64,000 bases of DNA from an uncultured Candidatus Actinomarina sp. (GCA_902565645.1 CACFFJ010000003.1:41969-105968); one strand, 5' to 3'; positions 439 to 18,270 are shown, numbered from the stretch's first letter. Numbers and translations: made by a program. The notes: generated by a model not told the origin, from the sequence alone.

Positions 439-1566
439 GTGAATGTTGCGTTATTCCTAACATATGGCTATTCAATAAAAACCTGGAAAGACTCTGGAAC
501 ACTTGATAGAGAAATTTCAATATATAAAAATTTAAACAAAGTAAAAAATGTACAATTTTACATAATTAGTTATGGTAACGCTAGTGATGAAGCGCTAGTA
601 AGCAACGAAGATGGTATTAAAGTTCTGCCTATTTACAAATATTTTAATAAAAGTAAATATAGATTTGTTAATTTAATAAGATCGTTCAGCATTCCCAAAT
701 TAGTAAAAAATAATTTAAATGAAATATCTATCGTGCAGCAACACCAACTACATGGTTGTTGGGTTTCAATTCTTTATAGTTTCTTAATTAGAAAACCATA
801 TTATTTAAGAACCGGATATGATATGTATTTATTTTCTATACAAGAAAGAAAAAGTTTTCTGATACGAAGTGCCTACAAGTTACTAACAAATTTAGGTTTA
901 AGATTTTCAAATATTTATAGTGTGACAAATAAATCAGATTTAGCTTTTCTAACTAATAAATATACTAAACATTCTAATAAATTAAAGCTCCGACCTAATT
1001 TTGTTGAGGTAAATTATTCAGATTTTAATAAAAGAGATAATAATAAAATCTTATGTGTTGGTAGGATCGAAGAACAAAAAAACTTTGGGCTTTTAATTAA
1101 AGAATTTCAAAATACTGCTGATAAATTAGAAATTGATTTAGTTGGAGAAGGAAGCTTGAAAAATGATTTATCAAAAAGTGCACTCAAAAATAAGGTAAAA
1201 ATCAATTTTCTTGGAATGAAAAATAATAATGAATTATTAAAAATGTATACAAATTACAAGTTTTTTATAACAACCTCTAAGTTTGAAGGAAATCCAAAAA
1301 CATTGCTTGAGGCAATGGCTTCAGGGTGTGTTGTTTTTGCTAGTGATATACCAAACCATGAAGAATTAATAAAAAATGAAATTGATGGTTTTCTTTTTTC
1401 GCTAATAAATCCGGAGTTGCAAAAACTATTTTTTAAAGTTAAAAATCAAAGTAGTGCTTTAAATAAAATAAGCAATAATGCAATAAAAAAAGTTGATATA
1501 CATAATAACTTGAACAATTTAGTTGAAAACACGTTTAAAGATTATGAATTAATTCTGAATAAATAA
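439..1566 (+). CDS. glycosyltransferase, GT-B fold (family 4-like)
   Basis: 375-aa ORF with a GTG start. The C-terminal half carries the GT1/GT4-type motif TSKFEGNPKTLLEAMASGCVVFASDIPNHEELI. Confidence 0.8.
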   Translation: MNVALFLTYGYSIKTWKDSGTLDREISIYKNLNKVKNVQFYIISYGNASDEALVSNEDGIKVLPIYKYFNKSKYRFVNLIRSFSIPKLVKNNLNEISIVQQHQLHGCWVSILYSFLIRKPYYLRTGYDMYLFSIQERKSFLIRSAYKLLTNLGLRFSNIYSVTNKSDLAFLTNKYTKHSNKLKLRPNFVEVNYSDFNKRDNNKILCVGRIEEQKNFGLLIKEFQNTADKLEIDLVGEGSLKNDLSKSALKNKVKINFLGMKNNNELLKMYTNYKFFITTSKFEGNPKTLLEAMASGCVVFASDIPNHEELIKNEIDGFLFSLINPELQKLFFKVKNQSSALNKISNNAIKKVDIHNNLNNLVENTFKDYELILNK

Positions 1567-3338
1567 TTTTCAAGTACAAATAACTTCCAGATTCTCTGTG
1601 CATTTATTCTTGATTTATTTATTGAAAGTGTATTAATTACTTCAGGATTCATATTTTTAACAAACGTACCATTATTAATGGACTCTTTAATTAACTCGAT
1701 ATTTTCAAATACCCATGTTTCAATATCAAATACAAACCCTTGTTTTTTTCTTGTAACAAACTTGGGTCCAAAATCATCCAGTAAGTAATCACTTAAAATT
1801 TTCTTAGGATTAGTTGGTGAAAAATAATTATTAGTATGGGAAAGAATATATTCAATTAATAAATGGTCAACAAAAGGTGACCTTACTTCAAGTGAGTTTG
1901 CCATTGAAGTTCTATCTACTTTGAACATCATCATCTCAGATAGAAAAAATTTGTATTCAATTAATTGAAGAAGTTTATAATTATCATCGATTGAATAATC
2001 TTTAAAAAGAGTACCAATTTTACTTTCAAAAAAATTGGACTTTAATAATTTTAATAATTTGTTATCTTCCAAATATGATTTATATCTAGTCTCTAAATCA
2101 TCAGATTTGGAGGAGAAAATATTTCCAGTTCCTAAAAAAGGTGGGTATACATCATATAGTTTTGAAAATAACATTTTAAATTTATTTGAATTAATCAAAC
2201 TATTCTGAAATCTCTTATATCCTCCTAATAATTCATCTCCACCATCACCTGATATTGCAACTTTATATTTTTTTGACATCTCTTTACAAATTAGATATGA
2301 AGGAATTAAAGATGGATCTGAGTAAGGTTCGTCTAATGACTCCAGTGCAAATAATACATTTTCTATTGAAATGTTTGATGATAGTTTAATGGAAGCATGA
2401 TTTGTTTCATATTTCTCAGATACTAATTTTGCCCAATATGATTCATCATATTTTTTACTATCTATTTCAACATTAAATGTATTTATATTTGTATTGAAGT
2501 TTGTTGTGTTTTTTATTATTGATGTAGAGTCAAGACCACCTGATAAAAAATTAGCAATAGGTACATCTGCTGAATTTCTAACTGATATTGCATCACTTAA
2601 TATAGAAAAAAACTCATCATTTTGAAAAGGCTTACTGTCTACAAAGCTAGATATATCCCAAAATAATTCATTATCTTTTTTCTTTAAATTATTTTCATAA
2701 CTAATTTCAATTAACTCTGAGGGTTTTAATTTTTTTATATTTTCAAAGATTGTGTCTGGAGAACTAATTACACCATTCATTAAATATTCATTGATTGAAC
2801 CTTGAGAAATAGTTTTATTCTTTACCAATTTTGAAACTGCAATTAAGTTAGAACCAAACACTAAGGTATTGTTTGAAATGTGATAATAGAGAGGCTTCTG
2901 CCCAACTCTATCTCTTGCTAGCAAAATATTTCTTTTTCTTTTATCTACATAAAAAATTGAAAACTGGCCCCTTAATTTTGATATGAATTTTTTCCCATAA
3001 TATTCAAGGCCTTTTAAAACAACTTCCGAGTCTGAATGGCTTGTGTGGAATTTTATATTTTTTGCTTCAAGTTCTTTTCTTAATTGTAGATGATTATATA
3101 TCTCACCATTAAACATAAGTATTGAATTACCACCATTTGAACTCATAGGCTGGTCAGCGCTTTCAGATAAATCTAAAATAGACAATCTGTTAAATATTAG
3201 AGAGAAACTTAGTTCATTTTCTTCAAAAAATTCATATTTTTTTGAATCTGGGCCTCTGCAGTGTATCAGTTCATTTGCAATTTCTAATTCTTCTTTATTA
3301 ATACTCTCTAAAGAAATTTTACCGATAAATCCGCACAT
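1542..3338 (-). CDS. asparagine synthase (glutamine-hydrolysing) family amidotransferase
   Basis: 598 aa. The N-terminus is MCGFIG (Cys2 nucleophile of class II Gln amidotransferases). An SGGLDS PP-loop motif is present (FLSGGLDSTSII). Location in a glycan cluster suggests sugar amidation rather than Asn synthesis (inference). Confidence 0.85.
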   Translation of the reverse strand: MCGFIGKISLESINKEELEIANELIHCRGPDSKKYEFFEENELSFSLIFNRLSILDLSESADQPMSSNGGNSILMFNGEIYNHLQLRKELEAKNIKFHTSHSDSEVVLKGLEYYGKKFISKLRGQFSIFYVDKRKRNILLARDRVGQKPLYYHISNNTLVFGSNLIAVSKLVKNKTISQGSINEYLMNGVISSPDTIFENIKKLKPSELIEISYENNLKKKDNELFWDISSFVDSKPFQNDEFFSILSDAISVRNSADVPIANFLSGGLDSTSIIKNTTNFNTNINTFNVEIDSKKYDESYWAKLVSEKYETNHASIKLSSNISIENVLFALESLDEPYSDPSLIPSYLICKEMSKKYKVAISGDGGDELLGGYKRFQNSLINSNKFKMLFSKLYDVYPPFLGTGNIFSSKSDDLETRYKSYLEDNKLLKLLKSNFFESKIGTLFKDYSIDDNYKLLQLIEYKFFLSEMMMFKVDRTSMANSLEVRSPFVDHLLIEYILSHTNNYFSPTNPKKILSDYLLDDFGPKFVTRKKQGFVFDIETWVFENIELIKESINNGTFVKNMNPEVINTLSINKSRINAQRIWKLFVLENYLFRINS

Positions 3339-3388
3339 ATTTAATATTATATATTTAAATAAATATGATATTTAAACTTTAATTTAAT

Positions 3389-4330
3389 ATGAAAAGTAAT
3401 TTTGAATACAATTTTGTTTATTGTTTTGATAGCAATTATAATTTACAAGCGTTTACTTCAATTTATTCCTTACTAAAAAATATTAAAACTAAAATAAATA
3501 TTCATATAGTTCATGAAAACAAAAACCTAAGAGAGGTAATACCAAGCATAATTTTGTCTAATGAAAATCTTGAAAACTTAATTATCTATGAATTTCAAAA
3601 TTCAAATATTGATTTTCCTAATATTAAGGGAACACATGTTAGTGATGCTACTTACTTTAGATTGTTTATTCAAGACTATGTTGATAACCAAATTGAAAAC
3701 TTAATATATATAGATGCCGATACATTGTTTTTAAATAACCCTACAAACTCTATAAAAAATAACTTTGAAAAACTATTAAGTGATGGAAACTATGTTGCCG
3801 CAAATACCGAATTTTACCTAACTGAAGAAAATGAAAAAGCAAAGAGATTGAAAATTGATAAGTCATACTTTAATGCTGGAGTATTGTTGATTAACTTTAA
3901 ACGGTGGGTCGATGATGAATTAACAAAGAAATTGGTTAACCATTTAGATTTGATTAAAAATGATGTTGTAGAGTGGGATCAGGATGTTTTAAACTCCTAT
4001 TTTAATGGTAATTATACGGAGTTAGATAAGAGGCTTAATTTTAATTCAAATCAAATAACTAAAAACTTAATAGATGCTGGAAAAATAGATTTAATACACT
4101 TTATCGGAAGTAAAAAACCATGGACATTAGATGGGATATTTAACATCACATCTAAATACTATCATTCTTACTACTCTGAAATTTTTAATTCAAAATACCA
4201 TTTAATCCATGCATGGAGAAAGCGTTCAATCTTAATTTATATCAAGAGCATAGTAAATCTTAATTTATTTCGATTTGTCAGGCCTTGGGTTTTTACTAAA
4301 GAATTTATTAAATCTCTTTTTAAAAGTTAA
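3389..4330 (+). CDS. glycosyltransferase family 8 (RfaJ/LgtC-like)
   Basis: 313 aa with IYIDADTLFLN (DxD), YFNAGVLLINFKRW and WDQDVLNSYF motifs typical of GT8. Confidence 0.75.
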   Translation: MKSNFEYNFVYCFDSNYNLQAFTSIYSLLKNIKTKINIHIVHENKNLREVIPSIILSNENLENLIIYEFQNSNIDFPNIKGTHVSDATYFRLFIQDYVDNQIENLIYIDADTLFLNNPTNSIKNNFEKLLSDGNYVAANTEFYLTEENEKAKRLKIDKSYFNAGVLLINFKRWVDDELTKKLVNHLDLIKNDVVEWDQDVLNSYFNGNYTELDKRLNFNSNQITKNLIDAGKIDLIHFIGSKKPWTLDGIFNITSKYYHSYYSEIFNSKYHLIHAWRKRSILIYIKSIVNLNLFRFVRPWVFTKEFIKSLFKS

Positions 4331-4380
4331 GAATATAAAAAATATATATAATTAAACTTTACTTATATATAGGAACATTC

Positions 4381-5298
4381 TTGAGAATTATAATTTTTGG
4401 TAGCGGTGGGTTAGTTGGTTCTTCTCTAAATAGAGTTTTGAGTAGTCAAGATTATATCTCTGAATTACTACCTTCGACTAGAAATGATACTGACTTGTTT
4501 GATTTTCAAAATACAAAACAGACTATAGAAAAATTTGAGCCTGATCTGATAATTAACGCAGCAGCTAAAGTAGGTGGAATTCTTGCTAACAACTCATTTA
4601 GAACTCAATTTATATTAGAAAACTTAAAAATAAATATCAATATTTTGGAGTCAATAGAGAATGAGCCAAAGATAAAGCTTATTAATCTTGGAAGTAGTTG
4701 CATATATCCCTTAAATGCAAAAAATCCAATTGATGAAACGGAATTGATGAATGGAAAATTAGAACCCACAAATTCCCCTTATGCTATGGCTAAATTAACT
4801 GCTATCGAAATAGGCGATGCACTAAAAGAACAATATGGTCATAAAATACTAAACATCATGCCAACAAATTTATATGGGCCAAATGATAATTTTTCACATG
4901 AATCTAGCCATGTTATCCCAGGCTTAATTGCAAGAATCAATGAAGCAAAACAGAATAATGAAGAATCTTTTAATATTTGGGGTACCGGTAAACCGTTAAG
5001 AGAGTTTTTATATGTCGATGATCTCTCTTATGCGATTGATTTCTTCATTAGAAATGATATATTTGAAGGTTTATATAACGTAGGCTCAGGAGAAGAAATT
5101 TCTATATTTAACCTTGTAGAAAAAATTAAAAAAATTGTTTCATATAATGGGGATCTCAGTTTTGATCCATCTAAACCGGATGGCAATCCAAGAAAATTGC
5201 TTAATTCATCAAAAATATTTGAACTTGGTTGGAAGCCAAAAATTTCATTAGATGAGGGTCTTAAAAATACATATGAGTGGTATTTGAAAAATATTTAA
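4381..5298 (+). CDS. fcl: GDP-L-fucose synthase (GDP-4-keto-6-deoxymannose 3,5-epimerase/4-reductase)
   Basis: 305 aa with a TTG start. It has the Rossmann motif IIIFGSGGLVGSSL and the SDR catalytic SPYAMAKL (YxxxK). Length and overall pattern fit Fcl/WcaG. It lies convergent with gmd. Confidence 0.85.
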   Translation: MRIIIFGSGGLVGSSLNRVLSSQDYISELLPSTRNDTDLFDFQNTKQTIEKFEPDLIINAAAKVGGILANNSFRTQFILENLKININILESIENEPKIKLINLGSSCIYPLNAKNPIDETELMNGKLEPTNSPYAMAKLTAIEIGDALKEQYGHKILNIMPTNLYGPNDNFSHESSHVIPGLIARINEAKQNNEESFNIWGTGKPLREFLYVDDLSYAIDFFIRNDIFEGLYNVGSGEEISIFNLVEKIKKIVSYNGDLSFDPSKPDGNPRKLLNSSKIFELGWKPKISLDEGLKNTYEWYLKNI

Positions 5299-5309
5299 AT
5301 ATTTTTATT

Positions 5310-6338
5310 CTAATTTGAATGTTCCCATGAAGGCTTTAGTAAATTATTATCAATTAGAACTTTCTCTTTTTCTGCTAATTTAATGTCCTCTTCTACCATC
5401 ATTTTTACTAAATCTTTAAAAGAAGTTTTAGGTTCCCAACCTAATTCTTTTTTTACCTTACTAGGATCTCCAAGTAAATGATGGACTTCATTAGGTCTTT
5501 CATGCTTCTCAGAGTACTCAACATAATCCTCCCAATTTAATCCGACTATTTTAAAAGCTTCATCTGCAAATTCTTTAACAGTGTGTGTTTCTCCAGTTGC
5601 GAGAACCCAATCATCAGGTTTTGTATGTTGAAGCATTTTATACATACCATATGTATAATCACCAGCAAAACCCCAATCTCTTGAGGCATCAAGATTGCCT
5701 AGTGTTACTTTTTTCTGTATATTTTGATAAATTCTTCCAACAGCTCTGGATATCTTTCTAGTAACAAATGTCTCTCCTCTAAGTGGTGATTCGTGATTAA
5801 ATAGTATTCCATTTACTGCAAAAATGTCATAAGACTCTCTGTAAATTTTTGTTACATTATGAGAAAAAACTTTCGCAGCAGCATAAGGGCTTTTTGGATA
5901 AAAGGTTGAATCTTCATTAAGGGATTCTCCCGTAACACCTCCAAACATTTCAGAGGATGATGCTTGATAAAATTTAATATTTTTTTCAGTATTTCTTATT
6001 GTTTCTAAAATAGTTACAGTTCCTATTGTTCCAGTTTGAGTTGTATAAATTGGATTCTTAAATGAGACTGCAACATGTGATTGGGCAGCTAAATTATAAA
6101 CTTCATCAGGAAGGAGTTTGTTTATTAAGTTTGTCAAAGAAGAAGAATCTGTCAAATCAGAATAATGCAAATTAAGTTGTCCGGAAGGAAGGTATTCCGA
6201 AATTAGTGGATCTATTCTGTTGGTGTTTATATTTGAACTTCGTCTAATTAAACCATGAACTTCATAATTTCTTTCTAATAACAATTTAGATAAATAAAAT
6301 CCGTCTTGACCTGTAATCCCTGTTATTAGTGCTTTCAA
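5310..6338 (-). CDS. gmd: GDP-mannose 4,6-dehydratase
   Basis: 342 aa with ALITGITGQDGFYLSKLLL, NLAAQSHVAVSF, QASSSEMFG, SPYAAAKV and LFNHESPLRG, the classic Gmd signature. Confidence 0.9.
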   Translation of the reverse strand: MKALITGITGQDGFYLSKLLLERNYEVHGLIRRSSNINTNRIDPLISEYLPSGQLNLHYSDLTDSSSLTNLINKLLPDEVYNLAAQSHVAVSFKNPIYTTQTGTIGTVTILETIRNTEKNIKFYQASSSEMFGGVTGESLNEDSTFYPKSPYAAAKVFSHNVTKIYRESYDIFAVNGILFNHESPLRGETFVTRKISRAVGRIYQNIQKKVTLGNLDASRDWGFAGDYTYGMYKMLQHTKPDDWVLATGETHTVKEFADEAFKIVGLNWEDYVEYSEKHERPNEVHHLLGDPSKVKKELGWEPKTSFKDLVKMMVEEDIKLAEKEKVLIDNNLLKPSWEHSN

Positions 6339-6341
6339 TTG

Positions 6342-7634
6342 TTATTTCCTTTTATTTGAATCAAATTCTATATTACTTAATAACATTCCAATAACAAGGA
6401 AAAAAATAAAGGGAAAGCTTGGTGATTCCATTGATGAGTCAAACATTGAGACTATGAGAAAGGGGGATATGCAACTTAGTTTCTCCAACGTTTTCATATT
6501 GCTACTAGCTAATAAAACCCTTCTGTAAAATAAGAAAAACAATAGTAAATGAATCAGCCCTCCTCTTGCGTATATATTAATTAAATAATTATGAACATTT
6601 TCATTGGTTCCATCCATGCCTTGGTATGAAGGATTATTCATTGCATTTATTTTTTGAGAATAATTGGCACCCTTCAAAAAATTAAAATTACTATTAGAAT
6701 CTTCCAATACGTCTTGCCAAATTTGAAGCCTCCAATTAATGTTTCCGTCAGATGAATATATTCTGTTATTAACAAATGAAAATCTGATTTTATCTGGATT
6801 TGTATTTTTAACAGACAAGATATTTTCAACTACTGCTATTTGTCCTTCTTTTTCTATTTGCTCATCTTCAACAATTACATAGCTAGTCCCTAAAAACATT
6901 AAAGTACTTAGAGAAAAAACAATAAGCGTCTTAGCTTTAGTTTTAGATAATTTATTTAAATGAATAAATAGTTCAAAAGTCAAAAAAATAATGCAGGCCA
7001 ACGCTGACCCTCTGCTCATAACTAAAAAAATTGGTAAAAACAAAGCTGTGATTAGTAAAAAATAATAAATGTTGTTTTTGGAGTCAAAATAATAGTTGTT
7101 AAGAATCATAATCACTAAGTAAGCTAATAGTATTTCTGAGGCTTTTAAGAACTGAAATTTATCTGAATACACTTCGAAAAAACTTTTTAGGAAAGCTGGA
7201 TAATGAACAACTGATATTATGTAAATTACAAATAGTAGGAAATAAAAAAATCTTATATGATTTATGTTTAGTTTTAAATTTTTAAAAATTATTTTTCCTA
7301 ACAATATAAAAGAGGCCGTCCAAATATATAGACTTGACTTATAGACATATGGATCTAAGAGGTTATCTCTATTTATAACTACAAAAATTAAAAAAGTAGA
7401 ATTTATTAATAAAAATAATTTATAAAAGTTTGAATCAAACTCAATTACAAATCTATCTTTATTGAAAATAAGATACAAAGTTAAAATAAAAGCAAATAAA
7501 ATTAATAGTTCTCCTACCCTATAGGAAAAAAGATATAAACCCATAAATGACCTTCCAAATAAAAGAGTTAATACAATAAATGTTCCGAAAATAGGTTTAA
7601 AAAATCTCATAAATTTTATATTTTGAATATTCAT
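6342..7634 (-). CDS. O-antigen ligase/polymerase family membrane protein (Wzy-like)
   Basis: 430 aa and polytopic. The motif LVMSRGSALACIIFL resembles the Wzy_C/O-antigen-ligase domain core, followed by a large loop. It lies in a glycan cluster. Confidence 0.6.
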   Translation of the reverse strand: MNIQNIKFMRFFKPIFGTFIVLTLLFGRSFMGLYLFSYRVGELLILFAFILTLYLIFNKDRFVIEFDSNFYKLFLLINSTFLIFVVINRDNLLDPYVYKSSLYIWTASFILLGKIIFKNLKLNINHIRFFYFLLFVIYIISVVHYPAFLKSFFEVYSDKFQFLKASEILLAYLVIMILNNYYFDSKNNIYYFLLITALFLPIFLVMSRGSALACIIFLTFELFIHLNKLSKTKAKTLIVFSLSTLMFLGTSYVIVEDEQIEKEGQIAVVENILSVKNTNPDKIRFSFVNNRIYSSDGNINWRLQIWQDVLEDSNSNFNFLKGANYSQKINAMNNPSYQGMDGTNENVHNYLINIYARGGLIHLLLFFLFYRRVLLASSNMKTLEKLSCISPFLIVSMFDSSMESPSFPFIFFLVIGMLLSNIEFDSNKRK

Positions 7635-7639
7635 AATAT

Positions 7640-8734
7640 CTATATCTTATTAAAAATTTTTAATAATATTTTGTAAAGTAAAACAAAGGTGTTGTATAGT
7701 TTCTTTTTTAATTTATTAAACATAAAACCATACAGCACTTTTGTTTTTGAGTAAGGTTTTCTCAATCCCAAAACTTCTTTTTTACTATTTTCTAGATATT
7801 TAAGATGGTCTATCAATATTTTAAAAGAATTTTTAAAATCATAATTATAATTTTCAAGTTCTTTAAAATAGAAAGAGTAGTTCTCTATAATTTCTTCTAG
7901 TTTATTTTCAAAATTCTCTACTTCAAAAGTTACTCCATAATTTTTGCAATATTCTGGAAGCCCACCACTATTAAGATGTAAGATTGGCAACCTAGATAGT
8001 CCTGCTTCCATGTGATGATTTCCAGAAGGTTCGTTAATCGAAGCTGTCACATAAATATGATGTTTTTTCAATTCTTCTGAAAGATCTTTTTTGTCCATTA
8101 CTGGTAAGACATTAGAATTAAAAAATTTGAAATTTTTTGGTAAATTGCCAATATATGTAAATTCAATTTTATTATTCCATTTTTTAGTAGAAATTAAATT
8201 GTCTAATGTTTTGTATATATCGAAACCCTTCATTATATTTGAACTCCAATGATGTGTAACTATTTTCAGTTTTTCTGAGCCATTCCATTTAACTTTTTCG
8301 AAATTATTAAAAACTGTTGAATCAGGACCGCCTAATAAAGTAATGTTTTCTTTACTCTCTATCCCTTGAGCCTCATAAAGACTTCTAAGCCACTCACTAA
8401 CAAAGATTCTCGAATCAATATTTTGACTTGCCTTTATTATTTCTTTATTAACAAAATTTGTATTTTTTCTTTCATCACATTCATTAATCCTGTGTAGCGT
8501 AATTGCTTTAGGATTAATAAATTTTAAATAGAAATCAATATCATAATTATCAAATGTGCTTGTTTCAGAATTCACTAAAGGATTGGTTAGAAGAATAAAA
8601 TCTAAATCTTTATCTTTTAAATCGTGTAGCACGGTATAGCCAAGCTCTTCAAAACTATTTTTCAAATTAAGTAAATATTCATTACCACCTCCGTAAGGTC
8701 CGTCGATAACTCTAGATCCGATACTAATTTTCAT
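7640..8734 (-). CDS. putative glycosyltransferase (GT-B-like)
   Basis: 364 aa. INEPSGNHHMEAGLSRLPILHLNSGGLPEY resembles the E-x7-E nucleotide-sugar binding region of GT4 enzymes, but the match is divergent. Confidence 0.55.
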   Translation of the reverse strand: MKISIGSRVIDGPYGGGNEYLLNLKNSFEELGYTVLHDLKDKDLDFILLTNPLVNSETSTFDNYDIDFYLKFINPKAITLHRINECDERKNTNFVNKEIIKASQNIDSRIFVSEWLRSLYEAQGIESKENITLLGGPDSTVFNNFEKVKWNGSEKLKIVTHHWSSNIMKGFDIYKTLDNLISTKKWNNKIEFTYIGNLPKNFKFFNSNVLPVMDKKDLSEELKKHHIYVTASINEPSGNHHMEAGLSRLPILHLNSGGLPEYCKNYGVTFEVENFENKLEEIIENYSFYFKELENYNYDFKNSFKILIDHLKYLENSKKEVLGLRKPYSKTKVLYGFMFNKLKKKLYNTFVLLYKILLKIFNKI

Positions 8735-9638
8735 ATAAGCTATTAAACATTGCGTTATATTTATTCATACCATCCGGTATGGTATATTTTTTTGAATTAA
8801 TGTAAGCATAATTTGTGTCAACATTCTTAAATTTAAAAGAATCTGGAGAAAAAATAGAATCTTGATGTAAAATCTTATCAGCTATCCCAACATCTGTTGA
8901 GAAAATTGGTGTCTTAGTTATACCGCACTCAAGTATTGCCTGCGGACCACCTTCAAGTCTAGATGTAACTAAATACAAATCTAGAACATTGTATAGTTTG
9001 TTTAACATATCATAGTCCACCATTTCAAAATACTCATATGGAATTTTGTTCTCTTCCAGATGATTGATAATATACTGTCTCCTCTTTCCAGCAAGTACTA
9101 CCTTTACATCTTTAATCTCATTATTTATTTTTTTTACAATGTCAACAAAAATATCTGGCCCCTTAATAAGCTTTGGTGACTCAAGATCGTGACCTTCTGT
9201 GTCTCTTTGGAAACTTCCAATTAAAAATTCCGACTCATTAAAATTCAGTGTTTTTCTTAATTTATTTTTTTCATGAATTTCATAATAAATATTTTGATTC
9301 ACCCAAAAAGGGATTGAAGTAATTTTTTTACTTGTTAGTTTCTTTAATTGTTCAATTGTCTTGTCTGAAATAACGTGGTACTCATCCACAAAATAGTCTA
9401 GAGAATAAAAGTCGTCATCATCAAAACTTTCAGCATCTATATGATATAAAGAACATATTACTTTTGCTCTCTTTAAGTGTTTTTTAGATATTTTTTTCCA
9501 AGTCCAAGGTGAGATAATCCAGATAATATCTGATTCTTTAATTTTTTCTGTGACTTGAGAGCTATTATTCTTAATCCATTCACTTCTAAATCTATCTACT
9601 ACCCAATTTTCATTGATTTTATTAAGAAATATTTTCAT
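8724..9638 (-). CDS. putative glycosyltransferase (GT1/GT4-like)
   Basis: 304 aa with VTSRLEGGPQAILECGITKTPIFSTDVG. It overlaps the downstream gene by 11 nt. Confidence 0.6.
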   Translation of the reverse strand: MKIFLNKINENWVVDRFRSEWIKNNSSQVTEKIKESDIIWIISPWTWKKISKKHLKRAKVICSLYHIDAESFDDDDFYSLDYFVDEYHVISDKTIEQLKKLTSKKITSIPFWVNQNIYYEIHEKNKLRKTLNFNESEFLIGSFQRDTEGHDLESPKLIKGPDIFVDIVKKINNEIKDVKVVLAGKRRQYIINHLEENKIPYEYFEMVDYDMLNKLYNVLDLYLVTSRLEGGPQAILECGITKTPIFSTDVGIADKILHQDSIFSPDSFKFKNVDTNYAYINSKKYTIPDGMNKYNAMFNSLYEN

Positions 9639-9701
9639 AAATTTGTCTCATTACATATAATAGAATTTTCCAATTAGTAAATTACTTAATTTAAACTTTA
9701 A

Positions 9702-10682
9702 TTGATGGAAAATATTTTAATAACAGGAATATCTGGGCAAGATGGGCTTTTTTTAACAGCAAAATTACTAAATGAAAATAACAAAATTAAAATATTTGGT
9801 ACATCTAGGAATCCCTCTAAAATTTTTTTTGATAAGCTTAATACATTAGTCGGTGAAAATAAATTTAGCAATGTTGAACTAATTAAAATAGATCTAAATA
9901 ATTTTTCTAATGTTCAAGAATTAATTAATAAGGTTGAACCATGTTCAGTGTACAACCTTTCCGGTCCAAGCTCTGTCTATAATTCACTTAAAGACAGTGA
10001 AAATACTTCGAGGCAAATACTAAATATATTTGATAATCTAACAGAAGCATTAATCAAGAATAATCAATTTCCAAATTTTTTCCAGGCATCTTCATCTGAA
10101 ATGTTTGGCAATATTTCTTCAACTTTTCTAGATGAAAGTTCAGAATTTAATCCAAACTCACCATACGCAGTTTCAAAATTAGAAAACCACTATAAAGCAC
10201 TAGAGCTAAATAAGAATTATAATTGGCCGATAAAATCAGGAATATTATTTAATCACGAATCAGAATTTAGAAACAAAGACTATTTAATAATGAAACTAAT
10301 TTCTTCTGCTTTCAAAATTCAAAAAGGGGAAATAAAATACTTAGAACTGGGGAGTCTTTCATACATTCGTGACTGGTCGTTTGCTGGTGACACCATAAAT
10401 GCCATCTATGAAATTACCAATAATGGATCCTTATCGCATTATGTTATTGGAACAGGAGTTGAAAAATCTATAGAAGATATGGCAAAAATAGTATTCTCAT
10501 ATTTTGATCTTGATTTAGATAACTATTTAAAAATCAATAAAAGTTTACTGAGAAAAGGTGATCCTGTAAGGGTTGTTTCAAACCCAAGCAAACTAAAGGA
10601 GGAGTTACTCTGGAAACCTAAATTAGAATTTGAAGATTTAATTTATCGATGTATAAAAAAAGGAATTAAGTACTTGGAGTAA
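9702..10682 (+). CDS. Gmd-like NDP-sugar 4,6-dehydratase paralog (extended SDR)
   Basis: 326 aa with ILITGISGQDGLFLTAKLL, QASSSEMFG, SPYAVSKL and LFNHESEFR. The Gmd AAQSHV segment is replaced by SGPSSV. Confidence 0.7.
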   Translation: MMENILITGISGQDGLFLTAKLLNENNKIKIFGTSRNPSKIFFDKLNTLVGENKFSNVELIKIDLNNFSNVQELINKVEPCSVYNLSGPSSVYNSLKDSENTSRQILNIFDNLTEALIKNNQFPNFFQASSSEMFGNISSTFLDESSEFNPNSPYAVSKLENHYKALELNKNYNWPIKSGILFNHESEFRNKDYLIMKLISSAFKIQKGEIKYLELGSLSYIRDWSFAGDTINAIYEITNNGSLSHYVIGTGVEKSIEDMAKIVFSYFDLDLDNYLKINKSLLRKGDPVRVVSNPSKLKEELLWKPKLEFEDLIYRCIKKGIKYLE

Positions 10683-11361
10683 TGTCTTTTCTTACACAGT
10701 CTGCGAAATACTTCTGTTCACTTTTAAATCTGTTAGAAAGGTTATCATTTGTATTTAAAATATAGAGAGGTTTCTTAATAGTATAAATACTTATCCCTTT
10801 CTTAAGTAAGTCTTTGAATAATTTGTAATCTTGTGCCAAATAGAATTTCTCATCATACATTCCAATATCTTTCAAAACATCCTTATAAATCATCAGAGTT
10901 CCATGAATGAATGGGTTTTTATATTTAACTACGAACTCGTTAGGAAATTTATGACTAAACCTTGGGATAACATTACTTGTATCCTTTATGACTGCTCTTG
11001 AAGTACATACTTTGAATTTTGTATTGCTTAAAACACGAACTTGTTTTTCAATTCTGTCTATTAAAGAAATGTCATCTGAATCCTGTCTGGCAATTATTTC
11101 ACCCTTTGACTGATTGATTAAGAAATTTAATGATTTTGTTAAACCTAAATTATTTTCATTTTTATATAATTTTATTCTTTTATCATTTATCGACTTTAAA
11201 ATGCTGTAGGTATTATCATCAGATTGGTCGTCTACAATTAAAATCTCTATTTTTTCATAAGTCTGGTTTAATATAGACTCTACAGATTTCAATATATTCG
11301 ATTCATCATTCCTTACACTAATTAGTACGCTGACTAATTTTTTTTTGGTAATTTTATTCAT
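10666..11361 (-). CDS. glycosyltransferase family 2
   Basis: 231 aa with VSVLISVRNDESNILKSVESILNQTY, ILIVDDQSDDNT and RQDSDDIS (GT-A DxD motifs). Confidence 0.8.
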   Translation of the reverse strand: MNKITKKKLVSVLISVRNDESNILKSVESILNQTYEKIEILIVDDQSDDNTYSILKSINDKRIKLYKNENNLGLTKSLNFLINQSKGEIIARQDSDDISLIDRIEKQVRVLSNTKFKVCTSRAVIKDTSNVIPRFSHKFPNEFVVKYKNPFIHGTLMIYKDVLKDIGMYDEKFYLAQDYKLFKDLLKKGISIYTIKKPLYILNTNDNLSNRFKSEQKYFADCVRKDITPST

Positions 11362-12520
11362 CTGAAAATACTGCTGATATTGTTGAGTGTAAAGTTTCTG
11401 TATTTAACAAAAAATGGATTTTGGTAAATATTCCATCACTAATAGTTTTTACGAAATTTACATCAGATAATGAATTAATTTTTGTTTCAAGATCTTGATA
11501 GTCGAACTGTTTAAAACTAAGTGAATAATCTTTTGGAAAATACTCTGACATTCCACCAAAATCTGGGTAGATTATCGGAACTCCAAACATGGCGGCTTCA
11601 CATAAAATTCTTGGCTGCCCTTCTACTAATTTAGTAGCAGTTATGACAGCTTTTGATTTTTTAATAATTTGTAATGTATCTTCATGGCTTTTTTGACCTA
11701 AGAAAACAATTCCAGATTTTTTGTATTGATTTTTTAATAAATTTAATTGGTCTCCAGTTCCTACAATTTTTAATTCAAGCGAATTTTTATAAAGTTTATC
11801 CCAAGTATTTAGCAATTCAGCCAAACCTTTTTCTTCTGTAACTCTTCCTGCGTAAACAACATAATTGCTTTGAGAATTATAAGAATTAGTTGAATAATTT
11901 TCTAAATCAATAGGGTTGTAAAAAATTTTTATCTTTTTCTTATCTATTCCAAGTTCTTCAAGAAAATTGGCATGGTAATTGTTCATAATTAACAAATTAA
12001 TGTCTTGATTTAGGATCAGTTTAAAATACTTTTTCCCATACAAAATTACAAAAAATGATTTGATATATGACTCAGAATAATACTTATTAAAAAATTTATA
12101 ACCCTTATTAGTCAAGCCACATTTGTTACATGTTTTACCACGCTTAATATGTTTTTTTAAAGAAAAAAATCTGGTACAGCTATATCTAAAATTGTGTAAT
12201 TTCAAATATGTTTTTACATTGTAATTTTTTAAAATTTTAAAGATACCTAGATTTGCCTTGTACCAAGTATTGTGAATGTAAGCAAAATCAGGTTTAAAAT
12301 CTAAAATTTCTTTTTTTAAAATTTTGTTAGAAGTAAGATTGCTTCCAACAAAAAAACTAAAAAGATCACTTATTTTAAGGTTTTTTGAGTTGTCAAATTC
12401 AAGATATCTAACATCATAATATTTATTTAAAAACTTTAATTCATCTTTTATATTTGAGTCTTCGCCGCCAAACTCACGGTATTTAGTATTTATTACTATT
12501 ATTTTTTTTTTCAAACTCAT
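11354..12520 (-). CDS. glycosyltransferase, GT-B fold (family 4-like)
   Basis: 388 aa with TKLVEGQPRILCEAAMFGVPIIYPDFGGMSEYF. There is an ATGA start/stop overlap with the upstream ABC gene. Confidence 0.7.
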   Translation of the reverse strand: MSLKKKIIVINTKYREFGGEDSNIKDELKFLNKYYDVRYLEFDNSKNLKISDLFSFFVGSNLTSNKILKKEILDFKPDFAYIHNTWYKANLGIFKILKNYNVKTYLKLHNFRYSCTRFFSLKKHIKRGKTCNKCGLTNKGYKFFNKYYSESYIKSFFVILYGKKYFKLILNQDINLLIMNNYHANFLEELGIDKKKIKIFYNPIDLENYSTNSYNSQSNYVVYAGRVTEEKGLAELLNTWDKLYKNSLELKIVGTGDQLNLLKNQYKKSGIVFLGQKSHEDTLQIIKKSKAVITATKLVEGQPRILCEAAMFGVPIIYPDFGGMSEYFPKDYSLSFKQFDYQDLETKINSLSDVNFVKTISDGIFTKIHFLLNTETLHSTISAVFSDE

Positions 12521-16268: not shown

Positions 16269-17672
16269 TTGGGAAGGTTCAAAAGCTTGGGAAGCAAAGC
16301 TACTTACTTAAAAGTTAAACTTAAAAAATATAGATTTTATATATTATTTTCTCCGATAATTTTAAATTCTATTTTTAATTTCCTTATCTCTTTTCAGAAA
16401 ATTTTTACAGATTTGAATATCTTTAACTTAATTTCAACATTTTTATTTTTTATATTTCTTTTTATTATTGGGTTGAATATTAAAGAAAGTTTGAATTTAA
16501 ATTCAATTTCTTTTGGGATCTGCAATTTTATTTTAAGTTTTTTTATTTTAGAAAACATTAATATTCTATTTAATCTAAAGTTAAATTTCTCTTCAGTAAT
16601 CTATCTAAATTTGATTAGTTGGATTTTAATATTTTTACTGAAGAGAAATGACACAAGTTTATTATTTTTTTTAATTACTTCAAGTACTTTTCTTAGAGTA
16701 TTCCATTATTTTTTTATTGAAAAGTTTGAAGTTAATCAAAATATTCGAGTTGATGCTGTATATTTCATTGAATTTTCAAAATTAATTTCAGAAAAAGGAT
16801 ATTTATTTTCTATAGAAAATAATATTTTTATAGGATATTCACAATTTAGTTCCTACCTTCACTCAATTTTTCATTATTTAAATTTTTTTACGAATGATTT
16901 TGTATATTTCAGAAGTACAACAAACGTTCTTTTCTTCCTATCGATTCTTTTAATTTTTGAATCTACTAGGGAGTTTTCTAACAAAATTTTGGGAATAATT
17001 TTATACATTTGTTTAACTCTAAATAGTGACTGGCTAAATTTTGTAATGATTGACTCTCTAATGTCAGAAGGAATTATGAATTATCTCTTTGCAGCTTTAG
17101 TGTTTTCACTTTTTAAAGAAGAAAATAAAAGATTAAGTTTTTTTCTTTTTGGTTTTTTAATTTTCAGTAAACAATTCTATATAGCATTAATACTTTTATC
17201 ATTACTAATATTTATCATAAATAGAAATTATCGAAATTTTGCTATCTACCTTGCTTCAGGTTATATATTTAAAACTATCCTTTACGCAACTAGGCTAAAA
17301 AATTTAGAACCAGATCACCATATAAGACAAATCGATATACAAGATACATTTTTTGACTTGTTGTTATTTCGAAATCTAAAAATCGAAAACATTCTCTTAA
17401 TTTTTAAAAATTTAGCTCAAGACAGACCTTTTACATTATTTTTAGTAATAATGACTCTTCTATATTTAATAAATCTAAAAACTAATAATGTTTATGAATT
17501 GAATTACTTTTTTTTCTTAATCTTTATAAATATCATTTTAGTTTTATTATTATACATCTCTGTTTGGAGGTTTATGGAGTTAGAATCTCCGATTAGATTT
17601 ATCCTAAACTTATATCTAATCAAATTTATATTTTTAACCAAAATATTAGACACATTTAAAAAAGAGATCTAA
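16269..17672 (+). CDS. polytopic membrane protein, function unknown
   Basis: 467 aa with a TTG start and about 12 hydrophobic segments. It is divergent from the 15973 gene across a 295-bp AT-rich spacer. Confidence 0.5.
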   Translation: MGRFKSLGSKATYLKVKLKKYRFYILFSPIILNSIFNFLISFQKIFTDLNIFNLISTFLFFIFLFIIGLNIKESLNLNSISFGICNFILSFFILENINILFNLKLNFSSVIYLNLISWILIFLLKRNDTSLLFFLITSSTFLRVFHYFFIEKFEVNQNIRVDAVYFIEFSKLISEKGYLFSIENNIFIGYSQFSSYLHSIFHYLNFFTNDFVYFRSTTNVLFFLSILLIFESTREFSNKILGIILYICLTLNSDWLNFVMIDSLMSEGIMNYLFAALVFSLFKEENKRLSFFLFGFLIFSKQFYIALILLSLLIFIINRNYRNFAIYLASGYIFKTILYATRLKNLEPDHHIRQIDIQDTFFDLLLFRNLKIENILLIFKNLAQDRPFTLFLVIMTLLYLINLKTNNVYELNYFFFLIFINIILVLLLYISVWRFMELESPIRFILNLYLIKFIFLTKILDTFKKEI

Positions 17673-17854
17673 TTACTATTTTCCAAAGGCTAAATGTAAT
17701 TACTCCCCTCCTGATATGCAGTTTTAAGGAAGTTTTATTAAGTAAATAGAGCCGTCATATGTTGTAACTATAATTTCATCATCTTTTCCGTAGTTAGTTC
17801 TAACACTTGTAGTTGTCAAAATTCTAAAAATTTAAAACCTTTTACTAGTTTTTG

Positions 17855-17900
17855 GTGGCCAGAGGCAGAATCGAACTGCCGACCCATTGTTTTTCAGATA
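17855..17900 (-). repeat. 46-nt copy of the 3' half of tRNA-Phe (att-like direct repeat, tRNA fragment)
   Basis: gtggccagaggcagaatcgaactgccgacccattgtttttcagata matches 18116..18161 at 44 of 46 positions by manual alignment. It covers the acceptor 3' strand, T arm, variable loop and anticodon loop, and lacks the 5' half. Confidence 0.85.
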
Positions 17901-17904
17901 TAAG

Positions 17905-18084
17905 CTATATAATTTTAAAATATTTTAAAGCACGAATAGCAAAATATATGATTACTAAAAAAATAACTCCAGCAGAAATAATTTCTGCAATACTGGTTCC
18001 TTTTGGAATGTAGGCAAAGGTAGCAAATATGCTACATGCACTTGCTAAAATTATTTGAATTACTTTCGTTTTTTTTTCTTTCAT
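17905..18084 (-). CDS. small hypothetical membrane protein (59 aa) between the tRNA-Phe fragment and the intact tRNA-Phe
   Basis: My own translation gives MKEKKTKVIQIILASACSIFATFAYIPKGTSIAEIISAGVIFLVIIYFAIRALKYFKII, with two hydrophobic segments. It is apparently too short to be listed in the ORF track. Confidence 0.35.
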   Translation of the reverse strand: MKEKKTKVIQIILASACSIFATFAYIPKGTSIAEIISAGVIFLVIIYFAIRALKYFKII

Positions 18085-18116
18085 AATTAGAATTTTCTGA
18101 TTTATTATTCATTTTG

Positions 18117-18189
18117 TGGCCAGAGGCAGAATCGAACTGCCGACCCCTTGTTTTTCAGACAAGTGCTCTACCGACTGAGCTATCTGGCC
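18117..18189 (-). tRNA. tRNA-Phe (anticodon GAA)
   Basis: The reverse complement GGCCAGATAGCTCAGTCGGTAGAGCACTTGTCTGAAAAACAAGGGGTCGGCAGTTCGATTCTGCCTCTGGCCA folds as a 73-nt cloverleaf. The anticodon loop is CTGAAAA. CCA is not encoded. Confidence 0.9.
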
Positions 18190-18195
18190 TTAAAG

Positions 18196-18270
18196 CGGGG
18201 ACGACGGGATTCGAACCCGCGACCTCCTGCGTGACAGGCAGGCGTAAACTCCAGACTTTACCACGCCCCC
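18196..18270 (-). tRNA. tRNA-Asp (anticodon GUC)
   Basis: The reverse complement GGGGGCGTGGTAAAGTCTGGAGTTTACGCCTGCCTGTCACGCAGGAGGTCGCGGGTTCGAATCCCGTCGTCCCCG has anticodon loop CTGTCAC, T loop TTCGAAT and a paired acceptor stem (one G-U). Confidence 0.9.

Follow-up and report, generated by a model that had tools for sequence, protein, structure and literature searches.

How did the 3' half of a single-copy tRNA-Phe gene come to stand a second time beside the intact gene, with one small reading frame enclosed between the two? The question arises in the genome of an uncultured Candidatus Actinomarina sp., in a stretch of 64,000 nucleotides that was analysed as a whole and is referred to below as the window. 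An initial annotation, made from the sequence alone, had read the repeat as an att-like scar and proposed that this tRNA-Phe is or was an integration hot spot, what is left there being a decayed element or else one boundary of integrations that occurred in series. Actinomarina ranks with the smallest and most abundant of free-living bacteria in the sea, and the diversity among its strains is concentrated in a single island that is bounded by tRNAs. The group has been reported to be without mobile elements.

The source genome (864 kb at 75% completeness, 32.0% G+C; same-genus genomes measure 0.9-1.1 Mb) agrees with the description of Ca. Actinomarinales as organisms of the class Acidimicrobiia with about 1.1 Mb of DNA of low G+C content. 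To the left of the repeat unit lie genes for glycosyltransferases and ABC transporters and to the right a gene for a Bac_transf (WbaP-type) sugar transferase. The tRNA genes for Phe, Asp, Lys and Arg all fall within 10 kb, with tRNA-Lys and tRNA-Arg a few kb past tRNA-Asp, and this set agrees with the published right boundary of the hypervariable region. The unit sits at a tRNA within the envelope-glycan island, a setting that corresponds to fGI1, the flexible genomic island or hypervariable region described for Candidatus Actinomarina. The tRNA-direct-repeat cassettes of fGI1 in Ca. Actinomarinales, that is, the same phenomenon, have already been described by Lopez-Perez et al. 2020, mSystems (PMC7771536), where tRNA-Phe is given as single-copy. 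A second study ('Actinomarina, resolved', bioRxiv 10.64898/2026.04.03.716425) deals with the tRNA-bounded hypervariable region and calls the mechanism of integration unidentified. Neither of the two mentions an integrase or names an element.

Results

The repeat and the gene that it encloses

Comparison of the window with itself reproduced the repeat of the initial annotation: 17855-17900 and 18116-18161 are equal at 44 of 46 positions, the former copy deviating by a C to A change at 17886 and a C to T change at 17899. A repeat finder returned a longer match of 59 nt at 88% (17851-17909 versus 18112-18170). Both ARAGORN and Rfam find an intact minus-strand tRNA-Phe(GAA) at 18116/7-18189, with a tRNA-Asp next to it at 18195/6-18270 (Table 1), and they bear out the view that the repeated segment reaches from the 3' end to the anticodon stem of the intact tRNA-Phe. 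The segment spans the 3' strand of the acceptor, the T arm, the variable loop and the anticodon loop (TTTTCAG, 17891-17897 in the copy and 18152-18158 in the intact gene), and identity stops 1-3 nt inside the 5' strand of the anticodon stem. A 22-nt core has exactly two occurrences in the 864-kb assembly as compared to none of a reversed control pattern, and tRNA-Phe is the only one of the 38 tRNAs of the genome to have a partial duplicate. The repeat is therefore real and not a matter of chance.

Table 1. Features at the tRNA-Phe locus; positions are counted from the first nucleotide of the window.
Feature	Position	Strand	Remark
31-aa reading frame with TTG start	17724-17819	minus	treated as non-coding spacer; no family, no homologue
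Trailer of the former tRNA 3' end, AAAACCTTTTACTAGTTTTTG	17834-17854	minus	belongs to older DNA on the left
Displaced 3' half of tRNA-Phe, putative attL-type copy of the core	17855-17900	minus	44/46 to the intact gene
ATATAAG, putative remnant of the element-side core site C'	17898-17904		stop codon of the 59-aa gene directly adjoins
Gene for a 59-aa membrane protein	17905-18084	minus	two hydrophobic helices; sole cargo of the unit
31-nt spacer, gene start to tRNA 3' end	18085-18115		without arm-type repeats
Intact single-copy tRNA-Phe(GAA)	18116-18189	minus	putative attR-type junction
tRNA-Asp(GTC)	18195-18270	minus	conserved partner of tRNA-Phe at the hot spot in all relatives

As had been noted, the 215 bp between the copies hold one reading frame only, which extends from 17905 to 18084 on the minus strand and encodes 59 amino acids. 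It represents a real gene, since homologues of the protein are present in 35 of 64 genomes of the genus, usually 0.15-3 kb from the tRNA-Phe array and on the tRNA strand. The identical protein is encoded on 22 metagenome contigs, and Pfam holds no family for it. What had been labelled a 'tiny cargo' is a conserved gene for a small membrane protein and probably the remnant of a two-gene cassette (see below). In many relatives, longer homologues of 81-85 aa are located just beyond the outermost half.

The reading frame of 31 codons to the left of the displaced half, formerly taken for a gene remnant, gained no support as such. It exists mechanically, yet it is without a match in Pfam, and a DNA search of 64 relatives with its surroundings (17660-17854, 195 nt) revealed no homologue and only two short AT-rich matches. 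The observation that an integrase is absent, on the other hand, stands: no tyrosine recombinase (PF00589) was found in the window, and the genome as a whole has a single PF00589 match, which is of Xer type and lies on a different contig.

The locus among relatives

A 30-nt core of the repeat was found in 54 of 64 same-genus genomes, 30 of which contain 2-4 copies. Most of the copies form tandem arrays beside tRNA-Phe/tRNA-Asp with a spacing of 208 bp to ~4 kb, and in every copy of every relative (60+ copies) tRNA identity stops at the anticodon loop. The cargo between the copies varies by genome and consists of unrelated genes, among them those for membrane proteins of 127 aa (in a 665-bp unit) and of 81 aa, for a GNAT acetyltransferase (in a 992-bp unit), for an MFS transporter together with a DsrE-like protein, for a methyltransferase together with a large membrane protein, and for an HExxH protein. 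At one and the same position, strains and species thus differ in content, and the highly variable locus, with its one to four half copies and different cargo, bears out the notion that tRNA-Phe serves as an integration hot spot.

Individual cassettes can be recognized in more than one genome. The 127-aa cassette is the sole cassette in genome G018 and the outer of two in G007, and G064 contains the 81-aa cassette of G007 as well, there preceded by other cassettes. Between genomes in which the right flanks are 69-73% identical and the left flanks cannot be aligned, integrase-less cassettes show an identity of 98.7-99.7%. An identity of 99% within these gene-sized cassettes as opposed to about 70% in the flanking DNA argues that they have recently crossed species borders as discrete units bounded by tRNA halves.

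Layout of the cassettes

Read on the plus strand of the window, a typical cassette starts with the tRNA half, which closes in CCCCTTGT-TTTTCAG, followed by AYAAGGG. The latter completes an inverted repeat of CCCTTGT over the 7-nt loop and corresponds to a C-O-C' core arrangement; in the window its counterpart would be the ATATAAG next to the stop codon of the 59-aa gene. Next comes a semi-conserved left arm of ~110 nt, which consists of CAAACCWTTTGACCT...TTTTAACTTATT and the inverted repeat CGCTCRTT...AATGAGCG, and then the cargo. The right arm carries two direct repeats, 25-35 nt ahead of AAAAACCYT and the tRNA copy that comes next. Each arm of the 127-aa cassette contains two copies of the word GTGACAGTTTT, and other cassettes have arm words such as GTGTGCGGTTTT or TTGGACGAC. 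Such an order of motifs is that of a lambda-type attP with arm-type sites, and the 665-bp cassette thus amounts to roughly one attP plus one gene. Many arrays in relatives are made up of such integrase-less cassettes that keep a full attP. We also considered the inverted repeat CGCTCRTT...AATGAGCG of the left arm as a structured RNA or attC-like hairpin and rejected this, with a consensus energy of -1.9 kcal/mol and a double change in 2 of 7 pairs only.

Integrases and circular elements

Nearly all genomes of the genus encode only two Xer-type recombinases. Apart from this pair, the intact tyrosine recombinases of the genus are two element integrases, both of which reside at other tRNAs. Genome G073 has an intact integrase of 366 aa beside a tRNA-Val(TAC) with three extra 3' halves, and this array shows the same right ends, made up of AAAAACCCT and direct repeats, as the tRNA-Phe cassettes; in G045 an integrase lies between two full copies of tRNA-Ile. 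Within tRNA-Phe arrays, remnants of an integrase are present in G003 (145 aa) and G002 (shorter). Compared to 401 genomes of the class, the G003 remnant matched itself, the remnant of G002 and, outside the genus, only distant integrases (<=46% identity). When a single genome of each species was searched for the full integrase, nothing but the G003 remnant was returned; intact copies are therefore missing from the species-representative genomes.

Metagenomes were scanned with the 145-aa remnant of G003 as the query. A full-length integrase of 382 aa, 96-98% identical to the remnant, is encoded on seven metagenome contigs, five of which carry a tRNA-Phe half with 44 of 44 positions equal ~170-330 nt downstream; the other two end sooner. 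The ends of the contigs L139 and L141 (Ga0208298_1002258 and Ga0208793_1004742) repeat each other with a period of 6,020 bp and an overlap of 98.7-99.3%, an imperfect match for which a tandem integrated pair would give the same picture as a circle. A further contig of 9,282 bp (L172), whose integrase is 81% identical, has an exact terminal overlap of 127 bp and accordingly a unit of 9,155 bp. Exact terminal overlap is the usual signature of a circular assembly.

The elements encode the integrase, which combines PF00589 with an AP2-like N-terminal domain (phrog_1), an HTH_17 protein of 73-78 aa of the excisionase type, a small HTH regulator, an AAA_25 RepA/DnaB-like replication helicase, a conserved protein of ~250 aa without known function, and cargo. 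On L141, L167 and L171-L173 the gene lists comprise int, HTH_17, HTH, AAA_25 and unknowns only. The integrase family contains 75 clusters at 47-95% identity, many of them on contigs of ~6 kb, and the G+C content of the elements is 33.6-35.1% versus 32.0% for the genome. The attP core of the elements corresponds to the last 44 nt of tRNA-Phe. It is flanked by an improved inverted repeat (CCCTTGT / AYAAGGG) round the 7-nt anticodon loop and, on both sides, by arm-type direct repeats (ATCGTCCC or TTTTCCCCGCAC). The P arms of the elements turn up again beside the intact tRNA-Phe of G003 and G049, and integrated copies of the elements adjoin genes for acyltransferases and ABC transporters of the kind that the island typically contains. 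Viral contigs contained no match to the exact 30-nt core and thus no sign of the attP on known phage contigs.

Judging from these sequences, the circular elements of 6.0 and 9.2 kb are likely to be the agents of insertion at tRNA-Phe, on which their predicted integrases would act. Where the initial annotation had suggested to look for the core, the genome itself contains no copy beyond the two at the locus, relatives have further copies at a locus that varies among them, and metagenomes contain intact, apparently circular integrase-bearing elements with the same core of 44 nt. The outcome named there as speaking against a hot spot, a fragment and spacer identical in all relatives and no element that carries the core, is clearly not what we find.

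The window unit compared to a two-gene cassette

Ten of the contigs with the identical 59-aa protein were inspected, and all ten have a gene for a 168-aa flavin reductase (PF01613) 60 nt upstream of the 59-aa gene. In five of them the stop codon is followed by 7 nt (yccatat) and the tRNA-Phe half, exactly as in the window, and the yccatat junction is shared by L151, L152, L156 and L159. Four contigs continue with other DNA after the 59-aa gene, and in the remaining one 12 nt of the half are left. The order in L155 is tRNA-Asp, tRNA-Phe, 65 nt, flavin reductase, 60 nt, 59-aa gene, 7 nt, a degenerate half and the trailer. In L159 another cassette is placed between the tRNA and the cassette of flavin reductase and 59-aa gene.

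Homology between these contigs and the window (97-100%) starts precisely at the ATG of the 59-aa gene and extends through the half. Since it begins only there and does not include the reductase, the window unit of 261 bp is probably a reduced form of the two-gene cassette of 819 bp. No homologue of the flavin reductase was found in the source genome and in the loci of relatives, and the 31-nt spacer of the window shows no homology to the spacer or the flavin reductase segment at the same place in the metagenome contigs. As no residual homology is left at the junctions, a deletion of the reductase gene in the window and its insertion in the contigs look alike.

Arm-type repeats were found neither in the non-coding parts of the window unit nor in those of the two-gene form. 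Both forms are also without a P' arm, and the 59-aa gene abuts the core. One and the same junction of gene and half, at 97-99% nucleotide identity, occurs beside differing trailers in the window, L151/L152, L155, L156 and L159. The halves themselves are mutated differently (the window copy at 17886, those of L151/L152 in the T loop, that of L155 to heavy degeneration), and such differing point mutations fit neutral decay. We also considered the 59-aa gene as a native chromosomal neighbour of tRNA-Phe, in view of the longer homologues beyond the outermost half in many relatives. For this lineage the reading was dismissed, as the contigs with the identical protein place the gene between the tRNA and a half, and here it is cargo.

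The trailer of the window, AAAACCTTTTACTAGTTTTTG, resembles the AAAAACCYT(+TATGGTTATTG) trailers which close cassettes and elements in relatives, and the trailer region is 90.8% identical over 65 nt to positions 6642-6704 of L038. This similarity indicates that the displaced half and its trailer belong to older resident DNA, as is predicted by a model in which insertions are stacked.

Discussion

Origin of the repeat

We consider it highly probable that the repeat is the attL-type scar of a tyrosine-integrase insertion into tRNA-Phe and that the enclosed DNA is a decayed and now immobile cassette. As no integrase, excisionase or arm-type repeat is located in or near the unit, its integrase origin is deduced from relatives. 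According to the mechanism that we propose, small circular elements would insert at the single-copy tRNA-Phe via an attP core equal to the last 44 nt of the gene, with strand exchange presumably taking place in the anticodon loop. The tRNA half of the incoming element would complete the gene, and the old half together with its trailer would be pushed outward. In the window, the segment 18116-18158 of the intact tRNA-Phe would accordingly have been supplied by the element inserted last. Repeated insertion would lead to tandem arrays such as those seen in relatives, and the window unit would be a decayed product, in which the 59-aa gene alone is left between the displaced half and the tRNA. Such a unit should no longer be mobile by site-specific recombination and would be lost or exchanged only through its 44/46-nt repeats. 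A decayed element and a boundary of serial integrations, offered as alternatives by the initial annotation, would then both apply.

The integrase model, with its core plus arms, offers a poor explanation for one finding: the armless junction beside different trailers. Either later integrase events reshuffled the neighbours, or homologous recombination took place via the tRNA genes and the 44-nt half; both are possibilities. The second may be extended to a different history of the window unit, in which the scar originally stems from some integrase event and the armless cassette reached this genome by homologous recombination, with the tRNA halves as portable anchors. Exchange would have occurred on one side within ~150 nt of identical tRNA genes and on the other between the 44-nt half and the 3' half of the recipient's tRNA. 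The lack of arm-type repeats and of a P' arm in both the window unit and the cassette of reductase and 59-aa gene is in favour of such a route, as are the recurrence of the gene-half junction in front of differing trailers and the fact that hardly any Actinomarina genome encodes an integrase beyond the Xer pair. However, 44 nt is close to the lower limit of RecA-dependent exchange, and the differing trailers could also result from later integrase events. Moreover, the attP arms of most cassettes in relatives are complete and have their arm-type sites in pairs, which suggests that movement is as a rule driven by an integrase. Arrival by homologous recombination thus appears unlikely to us, though it deserves to be kept in mind.

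But might the half have been retained because it is of use to the 59-aa gene, either as a structure for 3' processing or stabilisation or as the substitute for a terminator of read-through from the tRNA operon, so that it is under selection rather than decaying? Its position would suit such a role, as it starts 7 nt past the stop codon both in the window and in five metagenome contigs, and the gene itself starts 31 nt past the 3' end of the tRNA, on the same strand and with no promoter-like signal above shuffled expectation. Terminator scans round the unit likewise gave nothing above shuffled expectation, and thus no terminator-like site. Of the ten contigs that encode the identical protein, four are without a half behind the gene and one has 12 nt of it only, and the copies differ in their point mutations in the pattern of neutral decay. 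A function of the half is therefore very improbable. Local duplication by replication slippage or unequal crossing-over, with no mobile element involved, might be suggested by a unit of merely 261 bp without a mobility gene. We give hardly any credence to it, as the boundary at the anticodon loop recurs in the 60+ copies of relatives and in the attP of integrase-bearing elements, the cargo is unrelated DNA rather than a copy of the neighbourhood, and the same gene-half junction is present in other genetic backgrounds.

Returning to insertion by a tyrosine integrase as the preferred explanation, we tentatively put forward a wider proposal, about which we are less than confident. A so far undescribed family of circular elements of 6-9 kb that combine integrase, excisionase and helicase, together with their integrase-less mini-cassettes of the 'attP plus one gene' type, may build and continually reshuffle the envelope island, and armless cassettes may still move by means of tRNA halves that act as portable homology anchors. 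The island would then be a tRNA-anchored, integron-like gene bank.

Relation to known systems

The finding in the window adds one more, ordinary case to a phenomenon that has been published. With the fGI1 cassettes (PMC7771536) the window unit shares the organism group, the glycan island, the tRNAs Phe/Asp/Lys/Arg at the right boundary and the direct repeat of a tRNA. It differs from the published cassettes in being the probable armless remnant of a two-gene cassette, and the cassettes are here traced to probable circular int-xis-rep elements of 6.0 and 9.2 kb. What the window unit has of its own is its extreme reduction, its probable derivation from a cassette of flavin reductase and 59-aa gene, and its missing arms; by itself the window adds little, namely one more scar in the most reduced form.

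As compared to a lambda-type integrative element, the window unit agrees in its core, which is the 3' part of a tRNA, in the boundary at the 7-nt loop and in the C' remnant ATATAAG. It has neither a tyrosine integrase of its own nor arm-type repeats, whereas an integrase is encoded by the related metagenome elements, and arm-type repeats are present in the cassettes of relatives and in the autonomous elements.

By analogy of organization, the functionally closest system would be the tycheposon family of Prochlorococcus, a streamlined marine bacterium; these tyrosine-recombinase elements target tRNA genes and carry a replication module as well as cargo (Hackl et al., bioRxiv 10.1101/2020.12.28.424599). 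There, new insertions drive older ones into the island, in which partial tRNAs and fragmented integrases are scattered. The same combination of a tRNA target, tyrosine recombinase plus replication module, stacking and partial tRNAs is seen in the related elements and arrays described here, and of it the window unit is only a remnant. The host phylum is a different one, however, and the tycheposon study (bioRxiv 10.1101/2020.12.28.424599) is without mention of Actinomarina or Actinobacteria. Different from the tycheposons, the integrase here has an AP2-like N-terminal domain, and integrase-less cassettes of gene size that keep a complete attP are a prominent feature.

Several other systems show partial similarities. 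The integrase-less cassettes are like the cis-mobilizable elements (CIMEs) of streptococci. CIMEs consist of DNA between attL and attR without recombination genes of its own, which accretes in tandem at a tRNA or another att site and can be mobilised by a related autonomous element. They derive, however, from conjugative elements, whereas no conjugation gene was found here, and mobilisation of the armless window unit in cis or in trans is doubtful. Actinomycete integrative and conjugative elements (AICEs) of the pSAM2 type reside in actinobacteria, target the 3' part of a tRNA gene by means of a tyrosine integrase and Xis, and have a small circular form that replicates itself. The elements described here share these traits, but neither an FtsK/TraB-like transfer gene nor a RepSA-type rolling-circle initiator was found on them; their replication would depend on the AAA_25 RepA/DnaB-like helicase instead, and they are only 6-9 kb in size. 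Integrons, finally, likewise form arrays of gene-sized, promoter-poor and recombinase-free cassettes that are stacked at one site and shuffled between genomes. Yet the cassettes at tRNA-Phe have no attC hairpin, IntI or attI, and their site is built like a lambda-type attP, with arm repeats and a core that derives from a tRNA. What the arrays have in common with integrons is the outcome, not the mechanism.

We found no publication on circular integrase elements of 6-9 kb as island builders, and such a role is testable. The window leads onward to these elements and their family of 382-aa integrases, with an attP core identical to tRNA-Phe.

Results and Discussion

In alignment A1 (left arms of 15 cassettes of the tRNA-Phe/tRNA-Asp hot spot), columns 68-102 show an inverted repeat, CGCTCRTT (N about 21) AATGAGCG, that is conserved in most of these arms at 55-90 nt from the core. 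The 6-kb, probably circular integrase-bearing element from metagenomes has it at this distance in its P' arm. The motif folds weakly (-1.9 kcal/mol) and may be a protein-binding site. At one locus of G012, a genome of the same genus, left-arm and right-arm motifs adjoin the intact tRNA-Phe and are separated from each other by only about 120 nt, which leaves no space for cargo. This site looks like an 'empty' attP cassette, and no outer tRNA half was found with up to 2 mismatches allowed.

Many attL/attP junctions are reported by ARAGORN as 'tRNA-Phe' genes of 79-82 nt whose anticodon falls at position 39-40. The 5' half of these pseudo-tRNAs is imitated by the element side (GGCC..., with an extended anticodon stem), and tRNA counts in Actinomarina annotations could be inflated by such calls.

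The 59-aa membrane protein gene, sole cargo of the unit in the window, has a paralogue (87% nucleotide identity over 86 nt) divergently upstream of tRNA-Asp in one metagenome contig (L155), and this small-protein family therefore occurs on both sides of the tRNA pair in that population. Another contig (L160) has the order reductase, 59-aa gene (TAA stop), reductase, the second flavin reductase gene starting without a tRNA half in between, as if two cassettes had fused and the att copy had been lost.

A tRNA-Phe 3' fragment is also present at a second conserved chromosomal site common to six genomes of the genus. It reaches 6 nt deeper into the tRNA (..TTTTTCAGACAAGTG) and is followed by a conserved gene start (GTCACGTATAATACCTACATGAAAAGAATTTATAC); tRNA-Val(GAC) lies 2.5-3 kb away, with tRNA-Cys and tRNA-Gly farther out. 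One possible origin is an ancient att site that was translocated; another is a breakpoint from rearrangement of the island.

Duplications were seen at other tRNA genes as well. About 5 kb of G045, holding a 336-aa integrase gene and tRNA-Leu(TAA), is enclosed by two full 78-nt copies of tRNA-Ile(GAT), the entire tRNA being doubled rather than half of it. G073 has three additional 3'-half copies (46-57 nt) of tRNA-Val(TAC), which bound three segments: two cassettes that lack an integrase, and a unit of about 6 kb that encodes a DUF3631 protein together with an intact integrase of 366 aa. At their right ends these copy the tRNA-Phe layout, with direct repeats GTGCGGTTTTT and then CTGAAAAACCCT.

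Coordinates of the features within extracted loci (second-site entries refer to reoriented locus copies)
Feature	Locus	Position
Adjacent arm motifs	L045 (G012:C7)	about 6390-6512
Junction 'tRNA-Phe'	L033	9664-9742
Junction 'tRNA-Phe'	L034	6971-7050
Junction 'tRNA-Phe'	L038	6657-6738
Junction 'tRNA-Phe'	L105	3877-3956
Junction 'tRNA-Phe'	L110, L112, L114, L135, L138-L140	
59-aa gene paralogue	L155	1-86
59-aa gene, second reductase start	L160	569-919
Second-site fragment	L039 (G013)	~2897-2937
Second-site fragment	L047 (G010)	6675-6718
Second-site fragment	L111 (G066)	6123-6166
Second-site fragment	L118 (G060)	4145-4176
Second-site fragment	L120 (G072)	4248-4287
Second-site fragment	L122 (G054)	4311-4342
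tRNA-Ile(GAT) duplication	L082 (G045:C1:219500-238500)	6342-11382
tRNA-Val(TAC) array	L081 (G073:C3:165000-184000)	651-9900
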